From a virus (Duplodnaviria > Heunggongvirae > Uroviricota > Caudoviricetes), in IMG/VR virus record IMGVR_UViG_2617270939_000005: a stretch of 11,968 bases of DNA; one strand, given 5' to 3'. The notes under the pieces are model-generated. The model made no database searches. It saw nothing but the letters and a program-made list of their open reading frames with translations, and was not told the DNA's origin. The translations under genes and the position numbers were made by a program. Of this stretch, positions 885 through 10,814 are shown one piece after another (within the stretch, counting starts at the first letter, position 1; each line of letters starts with the position of its first letter).

Positions 885-912
885 TGGAGCGGGCGAAGGG
901 AATCGAACCCTC
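885..912 (-). repeat. 3'-terminal 28-nt fragment of tRNA-Gly (CCC-anticodon, glyU-like): T-arm, acceptor 3' strand and CCA. Attachment-site direct repeat, not an intact tRNA gene
   Basis: Reverse complement of 885-912 is GAGGGTTCGATTCCCTTCGCCCGCTCCA. It has a TPsiC-loop (GGTTCGATTCC), an acceptor 3' strand CGCCCGC and CCA, matching the 3' end of enterobacterial tRNA-Gly(CCC) as I recall it. Similarity to a tRNA body stops at 912, so the 5' two-thirds of the tRNA are absent here. Confidence 0.7.
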
Positions 913-1000
913 TTTGCTAACCCTATGAATTGTGAACCAAAATAAGTAATCGCGGTACTTATCCCGGTAGTTGGTAGCGGTAGATTACAAGGTAATTACC

Positions 1001-2221
1001 ATGCCAATCAAGAAGACTTCTTATCTTTATGCAAACAAAGATGGGATATTCATCTTTCAAATCTATATTCCGGTCTACATGCGCCACCTCTGGAACGGGC
1101 GGCGCTCGCTCAAGAAATCGACAGGCACACGGGACATCATGCAAGCTCGCATTTTCCGTGACCAATATTTATTAGAGTTCCGTAAGCTACAGCTCATGAT
1201 GAAACCGGATAACCCCATTACCCGGATTCATTCCGCTGTAACAGATCTTCACTTGCTGGCGGGGGTATCCAGCAGCATTACCACACCCGCAACTATTCCA
1301 GCAGAGCGGGGAAAACCAGCATCACCAAAATTGACAGATGTCAGTAAAGAATATGCAGAGCAATACAAAGATCGGCGCTCTTATTCCACGCTGAGTAAAT
1401 CAGTTCGCGCTGTATCGGCATTTACTAATTCAATAAAACGCCCAACCATTACAATAAATGGAATCGGGCGGCGGCTCGTCTCTGACTTTCTGGAAGCGAA
1501 CCAAGATAAGTTTTCCCGCCAGACGCTGCAAAACTGGTTAACCTGCTTAGGGACGCTGTATGACTTCGCCCGGCGTAAATATGACAATATCGCCCCTGAT
1601 AATCCCTTTCACGGCCACAATCTGGAAGCCCGCCAGACGAACGAAAGTTATCAACCTTTTGAACTACACCAGCTACAGGCATTAATAAAAGAGGCAGGTA
1701 GCGAGATACGAGACGTAATCATAATCGGTTTGTATTCCGGTATGCGTCTCGACGAAATCGCCAGCATCAAACGAGTTGAGATTATCAAAGTTGAAGGGGT
1801 ACGCTGCTTCTACGTCAGCAAATCTAAAACTAAAGCGGGTGTAAGGCACGTCCCCATACACTCGCTGTTAATCAGCATCGTTGATAAATACCTTGCGCAG
1901 AACAACGGTGAATACCTGCTCCCCCAATCGAACAAGATTAAACGTGCCGACGGTAAGCGTGGCCCGTGGTACTCGCAGGCATTTACACGGCTACGCCGTC
2001 GCGTGCTGTCAGCGGCTACAGATCGCCAATGCTTCCACTCCCTGCGTGGTCACTTTATTACTTGCTTAGACAGAGCAGGAGTACCAGAACAGCGCATAGG
2101 GGCAATAACCGGGCATACCGAACAAAAAGCTAAAACGGAAGCTTTCAGGACATATAGCAAGGGAGCAGGGATGAAAGAACTATGGGAGTATGTGGAGTTG
2201 GTCAGTTATCCGTGTTTATAA
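1001..2221 (+). CDS. int: Tyrosine site-specific integrase (phage-type), 406 aa from the ATG at 1001
   Basis: The track ORF 971..2221 starts at TTG; the ATG at 1001 is preceded by AAGG at 988-991. The C-terminal catalytic region carries the tyrosine-recombinase signature: GLYSGMRLDEI (Arg), SKSKTKAGVRHVPI (Lys), HSLRGHF (His-x-x-Arg), ITGHTE (His) and FRTYSKG (Tyr). Sits directly beside the tRNA-derived att repeat. Confidence 0.9.
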   Translation: MPIKKTSYLYANKDGIFIFQIYIPVYMRHLWNGRRSLKKSTGTRDIMQARIFRDQYLLEFRKLQLMMKPDNPITRIHSAVTDLHLLAGVSSSITTPATIPAERGKPASPKLTDVSKEYAEQYKDRRSYSTLSKSVRAVSAFTNSIKRPTITINGIGRRLVSDFLEANQDKFSRQTLQNWLTCLGTLYDFARRKYDNIAPDNPFHGHNLEARQTNESYQPFELHQLQALIKEAGSEIRDVIIIGLYSGMRLDEIASIKRVEIIKVEGVRCFYVSKSKTKAGVRHVPIHSLLISIVDKYLAQNNGEYLLPQSNKIKRADGKRGPWYSQAFTRLRRRVLSAATDRQCFHSLRGHFITCLDRAGVPEQRIGAITGHTEQKAKTEAFRTYSKGAGMKELWEYVELVSYPCL

Positions 2222-4708: not shown

Positions 4709-5704
4709 TTATGCAGCTTGTCGGAAATTTATAACGCAGTCAGGGCGGCGCAGCCCAACATTGAACAGGCGATATGAGTCCATCACCATTGTCATTTCGC
4801 GTTCATCATCCCACTGGCGATTGATAACGCTCTGCGCTTCGACTGTCACAAGTACAGACGCAGGCCGGAACAGCGTCGCCCGTGTCAGCGCTTCCCCTGC
4901 GGTCACATCATAATCAGCGCCCAGTTCATGCGCGGTAATGGCTTCCTGCGGGTAACTGTTCAGCTCAATAACTCGCACCCCAGCGACATAGCCAACGCGA
5001 CGCCATGCGTAATCATTGCCACTATCCCGGCTGTAACGGACGTTCATCAACTTCTTATGTTCCATCAGGATGCTGAACCAAGCTGGGTCGATGAGAAGGC
5101 ACAGCTCCGCCACCGGAATATCTTTTTCAGTTAGGAATCGATTAACAGCAGCTTTAATAGCGTGAACCAGTTCGTTAGCCGCATCCTCTTCGCTCCCCGT
5201 TGTCAGGTCGAGCGAGACAACATTATCCGTCAGCGGGTTAAACGTTGGTTGCAACGTAGGCGGCGGTACAAAGTCAGTCGCTTTGATTAGCTGGATAGTG
5301 TGCGCTTCGTCGTAGAACTTTGCATGGGCTGTCCCCATGTTGCGGCTCAGCTCTGCGCGAAAGGTGGGCGCTGTCCAGTCGTCTTGATAGTCAATCGGGA
5401 TGCGGATATAGCTCAGCGTATCCACAGAGATAATCAGCTTGTCCGACTTAACGGCGGTAGGCTCCAGCGATTGCCCTGCGGTTCTGCCCTTCACCTCCAG
5501 ATCTCCGCTCAGGCGGTCTACACGATACTGATTACTGTTTTTCAGCGGCTTGTATGTGCTCAGCCCCTCGGCGAGAAACACGCTCTTTGCCTCAAGGCGG
5601 GTCTGAACGTCCCGGTCATACGCTTCAATGTGAATGTCGTTGTCAGCATCTACACCGCCCCAGTGCGGGCGGAATTGGTCAGGGGTATAAACATTGTCAG
5701 TCAT
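4709..5704 (-). CDS. Putative major capsid protein (lambda gpE-like family, tentative), 331 aa
   Basis: ATG at 5702-5704 with GGGAG 9 nt upstream. Size and two segments (LLIDPAWFSIL and the C-terminal W-DDEREMTMVMDS...RRPDCVINF) loosely resemble lambda E-type capsid proteins as I remember them. The resemblance is from memory and not verified by alignment. Confidence 0.5.
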   Translation of the reverse strand: MTDNVYTPDQFRPHWGGVDADNDIHIEAYDRDVQTRLEAKSVFLAEGLSTYKPLKNSNQYRVDRLSGDLEVKGRTAGQSLEPTAVKSDKLIISVDTLSYIRIPIDYQDDWTAPTFRAELSRNMGTAHAKFYDEAHTIQLIKATDFVPPPTLQPTFNPLTDNVVSLDLTTGSEEDAANELVHAIKAAVNRFLTEKDIPVAELCLLIDPAWFSILMEHKKLMNVRYSRDSGNDYAWRRVGYVAGVRVIELNSYPQEAITAHELGADYDVTAGEALTRATLFRPASVLVTVEAQSVINRQWDDEREMTMVMDSYRLFNVGLRRPDCVINFRQAA

Positions 5705-5772: not shown

Positions 5773-6120
5773 TCAGGCAGCAGCTTTTTCAGCCGCGATC
5801 TCAAGAATCAGGCCGATAAGCGCGAAGGCAGGCCAATGGGGATTAAGCTCGTGCAGGTGCGCAACGCCCCCACCAAAAGCATCGCGCATATCAGCACCAG
5901 AGATGCCCGCGCGTTTGGCCGCCCGGCGCAGCAATCGCAGCTCGGAGCCGGGAACATACGCCGAGGGCATACGCACGCCGAAGCGTGAGGCGAGCCGCCG
6001 CCAGTGCGCTTCGTCAGCAAAGTCCTGCTTAAGCTGGCTGGCGTTGGCTTTCCAGTGTTCAATCCTCGCGCTACGGGCAGCCCTAGCCGCTGCCACGTTT
6101 TCAGGTGTCAGTAAGGTCAT
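5773..6120 (-). CDS. Hypothetical protein, 115 aa
   Basis: ATG at 6118-6120 and stop at 5773-5775. Arg/Ala-rich, predicted helical, with only a weak ribosome-binding site. Lies in high-GC DNA where antisense ORFs are common, but it fills the gap between two well-supported genes on the same strand. Confidence 0.5.
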   Translation of the reverse strand: MTLLTPENVAAARAARSARIEHWKANASQLKQDFADEAHWRRLASRFGVRMPSAYVPGSELRLLRRAAKRAGISGADMRDAFGGGVAHLHELNPHWPAFALIGLILEIAAEKAAA

Positions 6121-6279
6121 TGTCAGATCTCAATGCAAAGTGGGTTTATGTGTGGTGTTTGAGAGGTAATTTCGCGTTTTACAGGTGCAGGTATACGAAT
6201 GTACATCTGGCGATGTACAACGCGATTCAGGCTCTAAAACGTAAGGTTAAGACGTGGGGAAGACAGGACAGGCGATTGC

Positions 6280-7806
6280 TTAACGGCCAGCGCGTTTGCC
6301 AGCGGAGCGCTGCGCAACCAGAGCGCGGTATTGATCGTCGTACTGGCGATGGCCGGGGCCATACCCTGATTGCTGCGCCCACTGCGAAAGCTGATCATAC
6401 GCTGCAATAAACTCAGCATGAGACATACCAACAGGTTGCGAGGCAGGCTGGCCGTATGGGTTCCCCTGTGATGGGACATAACCAGTCGCAGTGCCTGCGA
6501 CCATACGCTCTTGCAGATAATGAACCGCCCGCTGCATCTGCGCAGGGTCGCCAGACATAACCATCCGTTCAAGGGTTGATTGCGTCCCGGCGTCGAGCGT
6601 GCCAGCGTACTGCAACATCGCGTCAACTGTCCCCTGCCCTAGCTGGCTTTCGACAGACTGGTGAAACTGCCCCATCAGCCCATGAAGTTCAGGAGTCAAC
6701 TCAACAGTAGTGCCATCCTGTAATTGCAGCGTGTCGCCCACTTGCGCAGCAACATCAATCTGCTGGTCTTGCTGGTTGGCAAAGTTACTTTCGTTCCAGC
6801 TTTGATTAATGTTCGCTGGCTGCGTTTTCAGGAAATCAGCATCAGGTGTTGTCTGGTCGAATCTGCTAGCGCCGTTGTCAGCGCCTACAGGTGCGGCCAT
6901 GTACGGCGATTGCTGCGGCGCAGTATCAGCGCCCGAAAGGTACGGATTAACATTCTGGTCAGCCAGCACATCACTACCACGGGAGAAGATCGCATCAGCA
7001 ACAGACAACTGCCCCGGCCTCCACTCCAGCCCATCGGGTGGCAACAGGCTAACGCGTGCGTTTCGGTCACAGCGAACCAGCGGGCGAAACTCATAAGAGG
7101 CTGTATTCAGTGACGGCACAGACGGCGACACTGCCAAGCCGTTTGGGTCACAATGATGATTTGTACTGTTAAATTTATCCTCGGTAGGTTTCGACTCTCC
7201 ACACCACAATTGACGAAACTCCGCTGAGTCCCCGTAGCGTTTGAAATCTGAATTGCGCATCGCTTCCAGTTTATTCATGCCCCTGTTGATGCGGTGTATA
7301 GTCTTCTCATCACAAATCAGGAACTCGCGGCAGGCTTTGAGAAAAGCATTCTGCCCGGTTGTCGATGCCGAAACGGCGTGCTCGCGCGGTTTCAATGCGG
7401 CATCATCTACGCGAACACCGGGAAAATCAGGCGGCAGCGGGTCAGCATACCGAGCAGGCTTCTTGTTGAGCCACATTTCTATCTCAGCGCGTCGGCAATG
7501 AATTGCGTCACCGGGCTGGATGACTTGCCGCAACCCCGTGTCAGAGCGCTGTTTTTGCTTCTTCGGTTGAACACCATGCAGCGCTCGCCATTCCCGCAGG
7601 GTCATAGCGGAGCCATCAGCATTGTAATAAAACTCTTCGGTCTTCGTGTTGTATGCCGCCTTAACGGGTTTATGCTTTATCGGGCATATCTTGGAACGCC
7701 GAATAACAATCCCGTCAGCGACCATTTGCTGTACATCTGCGTTTGCGGTATTGAGCGGGTCAGCGTCGGCAGCCTGCGCAAGCAAACGGCGTAGGTTCGT
7801 TGGCAT
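6280..7806 (-). CDS. Hypothetical protein, 508 aa: N-terminal region with HTH-like segments, C-terminal half Gln/Gly/Ala-rich low complexity
   Basis: ATG at 7804-7806 with GGAG 8 nt upstream; first gene of the minus-strand operon. Segments AMTLREWRALHGV and QVIQPGDAIHCRRAEIEMWL look like DNA-binding (AlpA/HTH-like) motifs. The C-terminal ~200 residues are Q/G/A/P-rich. No Walker A or protease motif seen. Confidence 0.7.
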   Translation of the reverse strand: MPTNLRRLLAQAADADPLNTANADVQQMVADGIVIRRSKICPIKHKPVKAAYNTKTEEFYYNADGSAMTLREWRALHGVQPKKQKQRSDTGLRQVIQPGDAIHCRRAEIEMWLNKKPARYADPLPPDFPGVRVDDAALKPREHAVSASTTGQNAFLKACREFLICDEKTIHRINRGMNKLEAMRNSDFKRYGDSAEFRQLWCGESKPTEDKFNSTNHHCDPNGLAVSPSVPSLNTASYEFRPLVRCDRNARVSLLPPDGLEWRPGQLSVADAIFSRGSDVLADQNVNPYLSGADTAPQQSPYMAAPVGADNGASRFDQTTPDADFLKTQPANINQSWNESNFANQQDQQIDVAAQVGDTLQLQDGTTVELTPELHGLMGQFHQSVESQLGQGTVDAMLQYAGTLDAGTQSTLERMVMSGDPAQMQRAVHYLQERMVAGTATGYVPSQGNPYGQPASQPVGMSHAEFIAAYDQLSQWAQQSGYGPGHRQYDDQYRALVAQRSAGKRAGR

Positions 7807-7947: not shown

Positions 7948-8210
7948 GTATGCACAAGCGAGTGGTGTTCGTTTTGCCACAGTAGAAACTCTAATTTGAT
8001 TATTTTTTAATCAACACCTTTGTAAGCCTTGCCCTGTCTGACTTGATGAATGATTTGCTGATAACTTTCAGTAGGTTTGTTGGGATGCTGGGATGTAAGG
8101 GGTTATAAGCGGCATTGTGAGTACCATATCCCAATATAGTACCGTACCACTACTCTATCCCCGCCGCGTTGACTGCCTGGCAAGCACGGTTGCGTGGAGG
8201 GCCGAGCATC

Positions 8211-8260
8211 ACAGCGGGCGAAGGCCGGGAATGAGCCAAAGGCGATGGAGCGGGCTGGAG
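8211..8260. repeat. Degenerate copies of the tRNA-Gly 3' end (relic att-type direct repeats)
   Basis: AGCGGGCGAAGG at 8213-8224 is identical to 888-899 of the tRNA fragment, and TGGAGCGGGC at 8246-8255 is identical to 885-894; both are in the same orientation as the 885-912 repeat. The surrounding 8200-8300 is purine-rich with recurring GAGC...AGCG units. Confidence 0.45.
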
Positions 8261-8629
8261 CATAGCGAGAAGCGCAGCCAGTGTAGAGCGAAAAGCGATA
8301 ACACTGATTAGGAGAAGGGATGAAAGGGAAGAACCCTTTTCTGTACATGTATTTTAAATGCAACTTTAAAGGTAAAACGAAGGTGTTGCCCTGCTTCAAA
8401 TCTAGCTGAGTGATTGGACAACACAGCCTTTGATCCCTTCCCCTGCCCCATCCCTCGAATTGTTCAGTGATAAATCACATTCACAATCTGATCTTGATAC
8501 TCATCGTCTGGCACGGCTAAAGCCCCGCCATCTCTTCATATCAAGAGCCGCAAGTAATACGGAAATACATTATAAATCATACCATTACGAGATTAGGCAT
8601 AACATAAATATCTGATATCAATACAAAAG

Positions 8630-8700
8630 CTGTAGGCCATCCATCACCCACAGCCCAGTAACGGCCAGTGCTGGCATCTCATCAGACTGTAGGTCATCAC
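8630..8700. repeat. Imperfect direct repeat CTGTAGG(C/T)CATC...CAC at the 3' end of the recombinase gene
   Basis: CTGTAGGCCATCCATCAC at 8630-8647 and CTGTAGGTCATCAC at 8687-8700; the second copy overlaps the recombinase stop codon at 8697-8699. Significance uncertain. Confidence 0.35.
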
Positions 8701-9329
8701 TCTGTAACGCTGGCGGACAGCTCACGTTTGATACGGTAGAACGTTGCCCGGCTTATCCCGGCAGCTTTCATGATGTGCTCTGGTTTATTCCCAACGGTAA
8801 GCATAGCGCGGACAGTTTCACGGGCGCTCTCATCCTTAGACTTCCCGTTATATTTCCCCTCGGCTTTGGCACGCTTGATGCCCTGCGCTTGGCGTGCTCT
8901 GCGTGTCTCGTAGTCCACTCGTGCCATCGTAGCGAGGATATCAATCAGCATTGCGTTAACAGCTCTCAGGATGCCCTCTGTAAGCTCTGACGCCGTATCG
9001 TTCAGTAGTTGCCATGAGGTTGGCAGGTCAACGGCAACGATCACCAGTCCCTTATCCTGAATCCTCTGTTTCAGTGTCGCCCATTCCTTTTGCGTAAGGC
9101 GGCTTAGCCTGTCGATGCTCTCGACAAGCAAGACCTCTCCGGCCTGCGCATCATCCAGCAAGCGCATTAGTTCAGGACGCGCCAGCCTCGCACCGCTGGC
9201 GTTCTCGATGTACTCCGCCCGTACAGGCCAGCCCCGATCACTGGCGAACTCTCGCAGCAAGCCCAGCGCCCGGTCTGCGTGTTGCTCTGATGTACTGGCG
9301 CGGCAATAGATAAGCGCATTGTGTGCCAT
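8697..9329 (-). CDS. Small serine recombinase (resolvase/invertase family), 210 aa
   Basis: N-terminal catalytic motif YCRASTSEQ (the Y-x-R-x-S-T-x-x-Q serine recombinase signature), the VESIDRLSR motif and a C-terminal HTH (AAGISRATFYRIKRE). ATG at 9327-9329 with GGGGGA upstream. Confidence 0.85.
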   Translation of the reverse strand: MAHNALIYCRASTSEQHADRALGLLREFASDRGWPVRAEYIENASGARLARPELMRLLDDAQAGEVLLVESIDRLSRLTQKEWATLKQRIQDKGLVIVAVDLPTSWQLLNDTASELTEGILRAVNAMLIDILATMARVDYETRRARQAQGIKRAKAEGKYNGKSKDESARETVRAMLTVGNKPEHIMKAAGISRATFYRIKRELSASVTE

Positions 9330-10046
9330 GCTTCCCCCTAAGTCTCAATGAAATATCACAGCAAGACCTATAAGAGATCACATCAATAATGTGTAGTCAA
9401 TAGAGTTTTATAGATAGTCAAATGAGACAGTGTGTCTATGTCTTTATCAGGTATACCCGAAAGAGACTGGCACCGCCCCACAGCAGCATTCCCCGGCACA
9501 TCCAGCGAACACAGCGTAGAGCGCACGCAGCAGATCAGCACGGCACCGCCACGATCTCGAAATCACAAAGGCATTGAATCACACATTGGAAGCACAGAAC
9601 GCAGCACAGAGCGATACAGATCGTTTTAGAGGGATGTACAGATACACAGTGAAAGGCAGATGATCGCAGCACTCGTCCCACACGGTTATTCAGCAACAGC
9701 AATCAGCCAGCATCTCGCTCAGTAGCACGCTCCTGTAATGCTTGTCTCGGATGAGCAAAATCTTAGGGTTTCTCAGCGACCCCTGACGCGCGGGCACGCA
9801 CATGCACACGGGGGCGCGGGCGAGCTATAGAGTTGAGGGAGGGGCAACCATAAGCGTGCAATTTTCAAGCTGGGACTTTTAACAGTGGGATTGTGGGGCT
9901 GTTTTGCATTCAGAGAGTGAGGCTGTGGGGGAGCCCTCCTTGAACCAAATAATGCGAAACTGATCATTCTTCCACGTAGCTTAGGCCACTTTGCATGGAT
10001 AATTAGCACCAAACACAGCAGCCAGTTTAAGAGAAATGCGCGACAT

Positions 10047-10265
10047 CTACCGTCTGCGTTTACCCCAGCGCTGCATTATGGCTCTGTGTGCTTCATCCGC
10101 TGACCATTCAATAGGTACAACAACGTGTACAGGCATTTCATCGCCAGAGGGGGCACCACGTAAATGGACTCTATACCCTAGTTTATTAAGTTCTACCTCG
10201 GACATCGGTGATATAACCTCGCCGCTATGGCTGCCGCCAACAAACTCAGCTTTAAAATCCAACAT
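10047..10265 (-). CDS. Hypothetical protein, 72 aa (doubtful)
   Basis: ATG at 10263-10265 lies directly downstream of a G9 run on the minus strand (C9 at 10267-10275 on plus) that could serve as a Shine-Dalgarno-like element. Its composition is more protein-like than the overlapping plus-strand ORF 10036..10359 (Ser/Thr/Pro-rich). No homology recognised. Confidence 0.35.
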   Translation of the reverse strand: MLDFKAEFVGGSHSGEVISPMSEVELNKLGYRVHLRGAPSGDEMPVHVVVPIEWSADEAHRAIMQRWGKRRR

Positions 10266-10266
10266 G

Positions 10267-10275
10267 CCCCCCCCC
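10267..10275. repeat. Homopolymeric C9 tract (G9 on minus strand)
   Basis: Nine consecutive C read directly at 10267-10275, immediately 5' of the 72-aa minus-strand ORF start and inside the alternative plus-strand ORF. Confidence 0.9.
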
Positions 10276-10355
10276 TACACACTAACAAGAATCATTGAAG
10301 GTGTATCACCCAGCAACTACGCTGGGCAGAACATCACCTCGGACTATCAATCAAC

Positions 10356-10814
10356 TTAGTATCGCTTTGTGTCTCGTAGTATTACAGACAGTAACCACCA
10401 CCATTGGCGTTTGATCCAACAAACATCACTGAACATCTTGCCGTCAGATGTTTTGATATAAACCCCGCCACGATGATGCACTTTGTTGTGATGAGCCTTA
10501 TTTATGAATGGCACGTTCAAGACCATTTCGTCTCGTGCTTTCAATCTTTTTGGCAGCATCGGTGTGATCATGTTCTCGTCCGAATATTCGTCGGATAACA
10601 TTCTAAGGCGTCCACTGGCTGTTACCACACCGGCTGCACTCAACGTTACATCGTGTGCGCTTATGTTCGAAACGTATATCCTGTCCTCGTGCTGATCACA
10701 TCCGAGATAAAGCCTTAGCGATGTTCTGGATTTTAGTAATTGAAATACGGACAAAGCAAAACCCGCCCACGCCGCGATCCCTGTCCAGTTATCTGTTTGG
10801 GTGATCCAAGTCAT
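10356..10814 (-). CDS. Hypothetical single-pass membrane protein, ~152 aa
   Basis: The track ORF starts with TTG at 10815-10817; the ATG at 10812-10814 overlaps the upstream gene's TGA (TGATG), indicating coupling. The N-terminal stretch WTGIAAWAGFALSVFQLL is a probable transmembrane helix, followed by a soluble domain with a His/Lys-rich segment (KAHHNKVHHRGG). Confidence 0.6.
   Translation of the reverse strand: MTWITQTDNWTGIAAWAGFALSVFQLLKSRTSLRLYLGCDQHEDRIYVSNISAHDVTLSAAGVVTASGRLRMLSDEYSDENMITPMLPKRLKARDEMVLNVPFINKAHHNKVHHRGGVYIKTSDGKMFSDVCWIKRQWWWLLSVILRDTKRY

Follow-up and report, generated by a model that had tools for sequence, protein, structure and literature searches.

A T-poor non-coding tract in an Escherichia coli chromosomal island as a probable counterpart of the Bonnellvirus terminal region

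The subject of this work is a non-coding tract within an 11,968-nucleotide (nt) stretch of DNA, IMG/VR record IMGVR_UViG_2617270939_000005 (hereafter the window), which is an Escherichia coli chromosomal island at tRNA-Gly with a phage-satellite-like layout. The tract is poor in T and rich in A+C, lies upstream of a small serine recombinase gene, and is without annotation in the near-identical RefSeq genome NZ_LR536431.1. Our analyses suggest that it is probably cis-acting DNA, the island counterpart of the strand-asymmetric terminal region of Bonnellvirus phages (the direct terminal repeat, or DTR, and the tract adjoining it), through which those phages would package the island. The non-coding region as a whole consists of three modules: a res-like module next to the recombinase gene, the T-poor tract, and a block at 9726-9875 that we refer to as block B (Table 1).

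A sensitive blastn search of positions 9720-9885 against 50,697 phage records matched positions 9789-9875 to 16 Bonnellvirus-type records, with 72-80% identity over 77-87 nt and E values to 4e-9; pairwise comparisons of this junction with the phages gave E values of 1e-12 to 6e-15, and megablast of the region against phages gave no matches. The five matched records that we opened (J8-65, Lidtsur, megetsur, altidsur, and Kosakonia phage Kc261) all belong to Bonnellvirus in the Autographiviridae, and smaasur, aldrigsur, mellemsur, glasur, and forsur, which also matched, are bonnellviruses according to PMC7552041. Other matched records were those of three Enterobacter or Escherichia phages and one Pantoea phage. 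In J8-65 (NC_025445), the match spans the inner boundary of the 259-bp DTR that is annotated at the right genome end (...GGGTCGA^GGGAGGCCC..., with the caret marking the boundary), and the left genome end carries the same 259 bp. From about 9789 onward, the window aligned with the first ~48 nt of the phage DTR. An alignment of four phages and seven islands contained 30 invariant columns and gave the consensus (A/T)(C/T)GGGGG-N18-19-GT(C/T)GA^GGGAGGSSCA...AA...CAATTTT(T)CAAGCCGGG, in which the caret corresponds to the J8-65 repeat boundary and to 9836^9837 of the window. Variants of this junction were shared between islands and phages, with AAACATGC found in island L022 and altidsur and GGCCCACG in island L009 and J8-65. 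Within the window the junction motif is present as a single copy.

The T-poor tract lies on the same side of this junction as the phage DTR and has the same polarity, with the minus strand of the tract corresponding to the forward strand of the phages. Furthermore, the main genes of the island, on the minus strand, run away from the tract as phage genes do from the left repeat, and the tract is non-coding, as is the phage DTR region, which is gene-free up to nt 1468. When read in the orientation of the window, the J8-65 DTR contains 6.9% T and 63% A+C and is built of CACAGCAGCACC/GCAGCACGCAGCAGC words, including words of the CAGCA/CACAG type in excerpts such as ...CACACAGCAGCACCGCCCAGCACCAGCAGCCCAGCGCAGG...GCAGCACGCAGCAGCAGGACGCAGCACCACACAGCACC.... 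In four phages, T accounted for 2-16% over the ~500 nt upstream of the junction (the repeat and ~270 nt beyond it) and then rose to 34-36% where the AT-rich early region starts. The tract shared 65 6-mers with the J8-65 DTR on the same strand versus 5 on the opposite strand, and CAGCA, CACAG, and GCAGC words are common to both. T-depletion is a property common to the island tract and the terminal region of these phages, the putative helpers, and it is position, polarity, and composition, not alignment, that suggest equivalence of the tract to the DTR.

At the distal end of the DTR the correspondence differed among islands. Just outside this end, four phages carry AAAAGAGACAGATACCCG(C/A)CCG (AAAAAAGATAGATAGCCCCGCG in J8-65; ...TATCTGTCTCTTTT in the phage-forward reading) at 303-323 nt from the end of the junction motif. 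Islands of the L005 type have AAACGAGACAGATAC at the distal end of the tract, a 14/15 match, and the window keeps only GAAAGAGAC at 9459-9467, an 8/9 match.

A sequence-only reading of the window had singled out the tract for its T-poor, A+C-rich composition, its recurring CACAG and CAGCA words, and its location upstream of the recombinase, and our counts bore out all three. Positions 9481-9600 contained 40 A, 40 C, 27 G, and 13 T (10.8% T and 66.7% A+C). Equally T-poor segments made up just 1.5% of all 120-nt segments in the 11,968-nt stretch, and the binomial probability of at most 13 T in 120 nt was 1.2e-4 at 0.246, the mean T content of the window. T amounted to 8-12% at 9475-9625 and 13.9% across 9465-9730, with a milder bias at 9601-9720 (18.3% T and 57.5% A+C). 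Within 9465-9730, the words CAGCA (9 versus ~1.0 expected from the density in the window), CACAG (5 versus ~0.4), ACAG (8 versus ~1.5), and CACA (10 versus ~1.2) reached 5-13 times the window average. Repeated 5-mers in the tract outnumbered those in 500/500 dinucleotide-preserving shuffles, and repeated 6-mers those in 495/500. These words do not amount to the protein-binding repeat array that had also been suggested: Tandem Repeats Finder returned 0 rows at a score of at least 30, so that neither a tandem array nor iterons were detected in the tract, no regular spacing was seen, and a repeat search of the tract yielded only imperfect two-copy pairs of 11-13 nt, such as AGCACAGAACG/AGCACAGAGCG at 9591/9603. 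A further suggestion, that the tract is not random spacer but a site involved in replication or transfer, fits our findings, as the tract has the same position, polarity, and words as the helper DTR and lies beside a homologous boundary.

Two other words in and around the tract were recorded. GATC is present at 9533, 9553, 9619, and 9662, or 4 times in 266 nt versus 0.87 expected, and may be linked to Dam- or SeqA-related control; the GAGATCAC word recurs at 9374-9381, near the start of the recombinase gene.

The capsid gene provides another link between the island and these phages. Among the same phage records, the best matches of the island capsid protein were to Bonnellvirus (57.7% identity and an E value of 3e-118 for forsur), and its identity with J8-65 gp34 was 56%. 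In addition, 181 nt of the related island L002 (positions 6045-6223, in the helicase-recombinase gap of E. coli 22AR0118) are 92% identical to the Bonnellvirus left end (E value 5e-69), where they cover the place at which the T-poor tract of altidsur, Kc261, and megetsur gives way to the AT-rich early region. If a recombinase module had been inserted, the island order of AT-rich DNA, G+A-rich T-poor DNA, recombinase and res, C+A-rich T-poor DNA, and junction would be collinear with the phage left end.

The gap between helicase and recombinase has features of its own. Related islands hold ~1.5 kb of unannotated DNA there. The corresponding gap in the window (~890 nt, unannotated) contains a second T-poor tract at 8160-8340, which is purine-rich with 9-12% T and recalls, without significant alignment, the portion of the Bonnellvirus left end that is T-poor and rich in G+A.

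We examined conservation of the non-coding region by comparing 20 distinct homologous units, drawn from metagenomes as well as from complete and species-representative genomes. Related islands are found at tRNA-Gly or tRNA-Leu of other E. coli and also in Enterobacter, Kosakonia, and Rosenbergiella. The final ~60 nt of block B are nearly invariant in all islands, with divergence setting in past ...CAAGCCGGG, and block B as a whole is ~94% identical in ~140/5,426 complete E. coli genomes. The tract itself is mosaic. In the window and in islands L002, L004, and L010 it is alignable at 75-85% identity with indels of 20, 22, and 14 nt, and the tracts of L005-type islands, L008, and L009 are essentially unalignable with that of the window, with compositional equivalents present in L008 and L009. 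T-depletion on the same strand was retained in all island types compared, with minima of 3-11% T per 100 nt, and islands with unalignable or diverged tracts stayed T-poor (9% T in L008, 8% in L009, and 3% in L010). Islands of E. coli, Enterobacter, and Rosenbergiella carry a T-poor tract or a compositional equivalent, which is weaker in those of Kosakonia. The sequence-only reading had named a lack of conservation in related elements as a reason to abandon its proposal; related islands do carry the tract or its equivalent.

Within these changing tracts, smaller blocks remain fixed. The 34-mer at 9616-9649 of the window is constant although its flanks differ by 20-25% (Table 1), and it is absent from L010 and from the J8-65 genome. 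On the minus strand it contains two ATCTGTA words (two ACAGAT words on the plus strand), which resemble the ATCTGT(T/C) found after the terminal repeat in T7 and Bonnellvirus. The first two GATC sites, at 9533 and 9553 and 20 nt apart, are kept in all four alignable island types. The 34-mer also matched non-coding sequence of the T5-like Vibrio phage Thalassa at 29/34 positions (blastn E value 1e-5) in two places of that record, with DnaA-box-like TGTGGATAA repeats located upstream of the match at a distance of 200-350 nt.

A further set of loci consists of island L003 and the ~140 E. coli genomes mentioned above, in which an island at tRNA-Leu (leuX), next to ahr, keeps block B and the junction motif (~94% identity). 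These leuX islands have a different, shorter recombinase gene and many insertion sequence (IS) and integrase fragments, and they are apparently decayed remains of the same satellite family.

Such turnover could also mean that the tract is a functionless relic, phage terminal DNA that was captured by recombination, is decaying, and owes its composition to its origin, with only its neighbors (res and the junction block) being of importance, if any. Consistent with this idea are the mosaic and indel-rich nature of the tract, its variable length (the distance from the res palindrome to the predicted cleavage point is about 130 to 370 nt among islands), a T-depletion weaker than that of the phages, the lack of alignment to phage DTRs, the loss of most of the tract from the degraded tRNA-Leu islands (L003) that keep block B, and the island copy in the window, which is without a helicase. 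We nevertheless regard a relic as unlikely, because islands of four genera keep the bias even though their tract sequences have turned over completely, the 34-mer and the two GATC sites persist as invariant sub-blocks within diverged flanks, junction variants track phage variants, and the phage DTRs themselves diverge fast yet retain the bias.

A number of observations weigh against the tract as a counterpart of the phage terminal region. Past the 87-nt junction, the tract could not be aligned to any phage DTR, and its best local match to the distal end of a DTR had an E value of 0.1. The shared k-mers reached z scores of just 0-2.2 over dinucleotide-preserving shuffles, and thus the 6-mer sharing is largely due to dinucleotide composition. 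Because the tract is not alignable and the k-mer excess is weak, it is a positional and compositional equivalent of the DTR rather than a demonstrated homologous copy. The match in composition is also partial: T-depletion is weaker than in the phages (16% T over 9468-9836 versus 7%) and is broken at 9625-9790, where T rises to 20-28%. The distal boundary in the window is ambiguous, with candidate positions at about 9468 or about 9616-9649, and the DTR boundaries used throughout are those annotated in one phage record, J8-65. No island protein other than the capsid protein resembles a J8-65 protein. The collections searched held no virion-derived island sequence, and the metagenome contigs are integrated copies; an IMG/VR record with a close relative, a 27.7-kb contig, shows no sign of a packaged form. 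Finally, the copy of the island in the window may be inert because a 2.9-kb deletion destroys its helicase.

The metagenome contigs were also inspected for terminal overlap indicative of packaged or circular forms, and none was found. An end-to-end adjacency of L020 and L052 was considered as a sign of circularity and rejected, since both are adjacent storage chunks of the one 27.7-kb IMG/VR contig. A second IMG/VR record holding a close relative is a 13.2-kb contig.

The non-coding region was originally suggested to encode a structured or non-coding RNA, and in its fullest form this explanation would entail a plus-strand RNA or long leader whose 5' part is C/A-rich and unstructured and whose 3' domain (block B) is conserved and structured; it would regulate the variable cargo genes on its right or act in trans. 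The unit is conserved across genera, plus-strand open reading frames (ORFs) begin soon after block B in L007 and L008, and a CTTCGG (UUCG) hairpin differs between L005-type islands and L008 by two compensatory changes (CCCAGCC/GGCTGGG versus CCTCGCC/GGCGAGG). Searches and folding analyses, however, did not bear out an RNA. We found no Rfam match at the gathering threshold or at E<=10, no hit in a tRNA/tmRNA scan, and no sigma-70-like promoter or intrinsic terminator in a scan of the region; candidates picked by eye on both strands were weak and not conserved. Minimum free energy z scores for the whole unit were +1.1 (plus strand) and +1.75 (minus strand) in the window and -0.5 to +1.8 in 6/7 homologues on both strands, so that folding was no better than that of shuffled sequences. 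The RNAalifold consensus of the alignable types was -15 kcal/mol over 297 columns with an unfavorable covariation term and only 1/33 pairs compensatory, and the minus-strand consensus was no better. Moreover, the conserved 3' domain is accounted for by homology to a phage DNA end, the CTTCGG hairpin is also present inside the terminal repeat of T7, which is a DNA element, and in L002 only a tRNA gene comes after the region. Given these results, a functional RNA appears improbable.

The hairpin with the CTTCGG loop lies ~75-90 nt upstream of the junction cut in L005, L006, L007, L022, and others, and in L008. We also considered an invertible segment between CCCCACAGC (9476) and GCTGTGGGG (9922) and rejected it, as the arms are just 81% complementary, L010 does not preserve them, and the orientation with respect to the recombinase is the same in every homologue.

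On its other side, the tract abuts a region that resembles a resolvase binding site. This region contains direct repeats (TAGTCAATAGAG/TAGTCAAATGAG at 9394-9405 and 9415-9426) and a 28-bp palindrome (GTCTTTATCAGGTATACCCGAAAGAGAC at 9440-9467) with arms GTCTTTATCAGGTATAC/GTATACCCGAAAGAGAC and core GGTATACC at 9450-9457. As in the res sites of Tn3/gamma-delta, a palindrome and repeated subsites directly precede a small serine recombinase gene. The likeness to res concerns this neighboring module, however, and the tract is missing at other loci with the same site and recombinase. In the unrelated metagenome contexts of L036 (recombinase 69% identical) and L031 (30%), the res-like site also precedes the recombinase gene without a T-poor tract, and because it is present where DNA that is not T-poor follows, we assign 9385-9467 to the recombinase module as its res-like site. 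In a search of a plasmid collection, the match was confined to the 138 nt nearest the res site, and the matching record proved to be a chromosome. In L026, a second palindrome of 31 bp (TCAATAGAGTTAAATTTAACCCTATTGA) lies beside the res-like site.

This arrangement raises the alternative that the tract serves the resolvase system as accessory DNA, or is the early control region of the island, holding extra recombinase or regulator sites for the leftward operon or for multimer resolution. The tract begins exactly at the right arm of the palindrome, its short words (ACAGC/CACAG) recur above shuffles, and GATC is enriched in its 266 nt, with two of the sites conserved in the four alignable types. 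We give this alternative little credence, because the palindrome and recombinase occur without a T-poor tract in L036, L031, and L026; L003 combines a T-poor tract and junction with another recombinase; the words show neither periodic spacing nor an array; and phages without a resolvase gene have DTRs filled with these same words. The res site and the tract occur independently and are therefore separable modules.

We also analyzed whether the tract could encode a small protein, for which an ORF of 63-65 amino acids at 9432/9438-9629 on the plus strand would be available. Stop codons are naturally lacking where DNA is poor in T or A, and, as the composition predicts, we counted just 2-4 stops in each of the six frames. 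The ORF product had no Pfam match, the start codon lies inside the res palindrome and is not conserved, the 20-, 22-, and 14-nt indels of homologues are not multiples of three and break the frame, and a conserved block (GATCAGCACGGCACCGCCACGATC) falls in a frame that differs between the window and L010/L002. A protein-coding role is thus scarcely credible.

Returning to the tract as a counterpart of a phage terminal region, one of the closest known systems is the concatemer junction of T7, with its 160-bp terminal repeat, class II pause site, SRL/SRR short-repeat tracts, and pac sites. Pausing of T7 RNA polymerase at this junction starts packaging (PMC3276506; 10.1101/2021.01.11.426313), and the class II pause signal ATCTGTT has been described (10.1101/2021.01.11.426313). 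In the T7 genome, ATCTGTT is at position 161, directly after the 160-bp repeat, which is flanked by a strongly strand-biased tract of CCTAAAG repeats (10.8% G) and holds a CTTCGG hairpin (GTCAACCTTCGGTTGAC, T7 nt ~64-80). T7 and the island thus share a non-coding, strand-biased, word-repetitive tract beside or within the repeat; an ATCTGT-type word past the repeat (T7 position 161, Bonnellvirus TATCTGTCTCTTTT, and two ATCTGTA words in the island); and a CTTCGG hairpin, in the T7 repeat and in L005-type islands. Unlike these shared features, the primary sequences have no similarity, and the T7 bias is G-depletion after the repeat as opposed to T-depletion.

Comparison with Bonnellvirus itself revealed the island to be both like and unlike its putative helper. 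The two are alike in the 87-nt homology across the inner DTR boundary, the side, polarity, and non-coding nature of the adjoining tract, the common direction of the downstream genes, and the related capsid genes. In contrast to the phage DTR, the island tract has GATC sites and the invariant 34-mer, abuts a resolvase module, and lies in an integrated island of 12-14 kb without genes for RNA polymerase, DNA polymerase, portal, terminase, or tail. An attempt to derive a Bonnellvirus promoter consensus from repeated 11-mers in J8-65 yielded none.

These comparisons suggest how the parts might act together. On the minus strand, the junction motif (9875 to 9837) is homologous to the sequence before the right-hand DTR, and the predicted cleavage point comes next, at 9837^9836. 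A tract of ~190-370 nt (9836 to ~9650 or to 9468) that is rich in G+T and poor in A stands in the place of the DTR, ahead of the resolvase site and gene, the helicase, the capsid, and other genes, all in one direction. Infection by a Bonnellvirus-like helper would lead to excision and replication of the island. The helper terminase would then recognize the junction motif on island multimers, cut at 9836^9837, and treat the adjoining tract as a terminal repeat in the manner of T7 at its concatemer junction, with island DNA being packaged into capsids composed at least partly of the island's own capsid protein. The packaged linear DNA would start with the tract and end with the junction motif and repeat, and in between it would carry the genes for the recombinase, helicase, capsid protein, and integrase, then attP and the cargo. 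After injection, the resolvase might cyclize this linear DNA in a Cre/lox-like fashion at the res site abutting the tract and thereby allow integration.

Known phage satellites (P4 with cos; SaPI/PICI with pac and their own TerS; cf-PICI; PLE; and PICMI) rely on cos or headful pac signals and mostly on temperate helpers. The island is like these satellites in having an integrase, a helper-type structural gene, and a copy of what appears to be the helper packaging signal. It differs in that this signal is a T7-type DTR or concatemer junction and the putative helper is a virulent podophage, and, unlike cf-PICI, it has a capsid gene but no portal, protease, or terminase. Terminal repeats with a packaging junction and satellites that copy helper packaging signals are already known kinds. 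Dependence on a virulent podophage combined with a copied T7-type DTR junction is apparently undescribed for satellites; we found no description of satellites of Bonnellvirus, Autographiviridae, or T7-like phages in the searchable literature. On these grounds we tentatively put forward that the tRNA-Gly and tRNA-Leu islands of E. coli, Enterobacter, Kosakonia, and Rosenbergiella may form an undescribed satellite family of virulent Bonnellvirus podophages, packaged by mimicry of the junction and DTR, with the tract as their own terminal repeat and res as a possible means of cyclizing the DNA.

If this is correct, mimicry of the DTR or concatemer junction would be a third mode of packaging hijack by satellites, beside cos and headful pac, and E. 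coli would harbor satellites with a strictly lytic, T7-like helper. T7-like lytic phages are common phage-therapy candidates, and carriage of such islands could affect therapy outcomes and gene transfer. To our knowledge, Bonnellvirus packaging signals have not been studied so far, and our analysis narrows the cis element to a few hundred bases and offers a candidate terminase recognition and cleavage motif for this genus. The family would also be a natural counterpart of laboratory T7 phagemids: in the passage of PMC13236587 that cites Chung & Hinkle 1990, plasmids with a T7 origin and the pac site or terminal repeat are described as being packaged by T7. With regard to annotation, our findings account for roughly the first half (9330-9875) of an intergenic region of ~1 kb that had appeared empty.

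The gene content of the island is consistent with a satellite. The window is 99.9-100% identical to E. coli NZ_LR536431.1 (L001) except for the first ~1 kb, a 2.9-kb deletion, and a 0.55-kb substitution (8194-8742). An attL copy of the tRNA-Gly 3' end forms the left border, and the tRNA-Gly gene itself is attR at the other border. A leftward gene set includes an endonuclease VII-like gene, an HNH endonuclease, the major capsid protein, small unknown genes, and a DEAD/DEAH helicase, and ~1 kb without annotated genes (9330-10355) separates the recombinase gene from two cargo genes. The largest ORFs of the NZ_LR536431.1 island encode a helicase of 614 amino acids, an integrase of 360, and a capsid protein of 331, and none of the ORFs of that island is long enough for a portal or large terminase. 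The island thus combines an integrase and att sites with a helper-related capsid gene and an incomplete set of virion and packaging genes, as is characteristic of satellites.

Table 1. Features of the window bearing on the T-poor tract and its island (^ marks a point between two nucleotides)
Feature	Position	Strand	Basis or remark
attL, 28-bp copy of tRNA-Gly 3' end, left island border	885..912		Exact match in NZ_LR536431.1
Tyrosine integrase	971..2221	+	Annotated tyrosine-type recombinase/integrase in 100%-identical stretch of NZ_LR536431.1
Major capsid protein, Bonnellvirus/phiKMV-type	4709..5704	-	PHROG 267, E 2.8e-67
Small serine recombinase (resolvase/invertase family)	8697..9329	-	Pfam PF00239, E 6.8e-25, and PF02796; PHROG 125 'DNA invertase', E 3e-40
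res-like region abutting the T-poor tract	9385..9467		Repeat search; conserved upstream of related recombinase genes
T-poor, A+C-rich non-coding tract	9468..9730		Proposed part of satellite counterpart of Bonnellvirus terminal region (DTR and/or T-poor tract beyond); 75-80% identity in L002, L004, and L010
Invariant 34-mer ACAGATCGTTTTAGAGGGATGTACAGATACACAG	9616..9649		No mismatch among the window, L002, L004, and five metagenome loci
5' part of block B, rich in G runs (ACGGGGGCGCGGGCG), proximal DTR-like tract	9731..9836		Ends at predicted cleavage point 9836^9837; ~93-94% identity in ~140/5,426 complete E. coli genomes
Junction motif ACGGGGG-N19-GTTGA^GGGAGGGGCAACCATAAGCGTGCAATTTTCAAGCTGGG	9789..9875		Homologous to Bonnellvirus right-end/DTR boundary; proposed terminase recognition/cleavage site

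Relative to L001, the window has lost 2.9 kb (L001 7289-10186), with the deletion junction at window position 6962. The deletion joins the N-terminal ~281 codons of the DEAD/DEAH helicase to an ORF of 228 amino acids and creates an ORF of 508 amino acids at 6280-7806, and this copy of the island is probably replication-defective. The helicase is intact in the islands of NZ_LR536431.1, strain 22AR0118 (NZ_CM132257.1), and strain 5735 (NZ_CP154887.1). In addition, 549 nt of the window (8194-8742) have no counterpart in L001, and the C terminus of the recombinase is altered.

The ~480 nt to the right of the junction motif (9876-10355) contain unannotated ORFs at 10036-10359 (plus strand) and 10047-10265 (minus strand), neither of which has a Pfam match. 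The repeats AGTGGGATTGTGGGG/AGTGAGGCTGTGGGG at 9884-9930 are partly complementary to the start of the tract, and this complementarity is not conserved. In L002, the DNA to the right of the junction (~8330-8450) forms a conserved segment that we term block C, present after the junction in many islands, with equivalents in L003, L005, L006, and L009 and other DNA at this place in the window; block C holds an 11-bp inverted repeat (GGTTGTGCGCA...TGCGCACAAAC) with a loop of ~27 nt.

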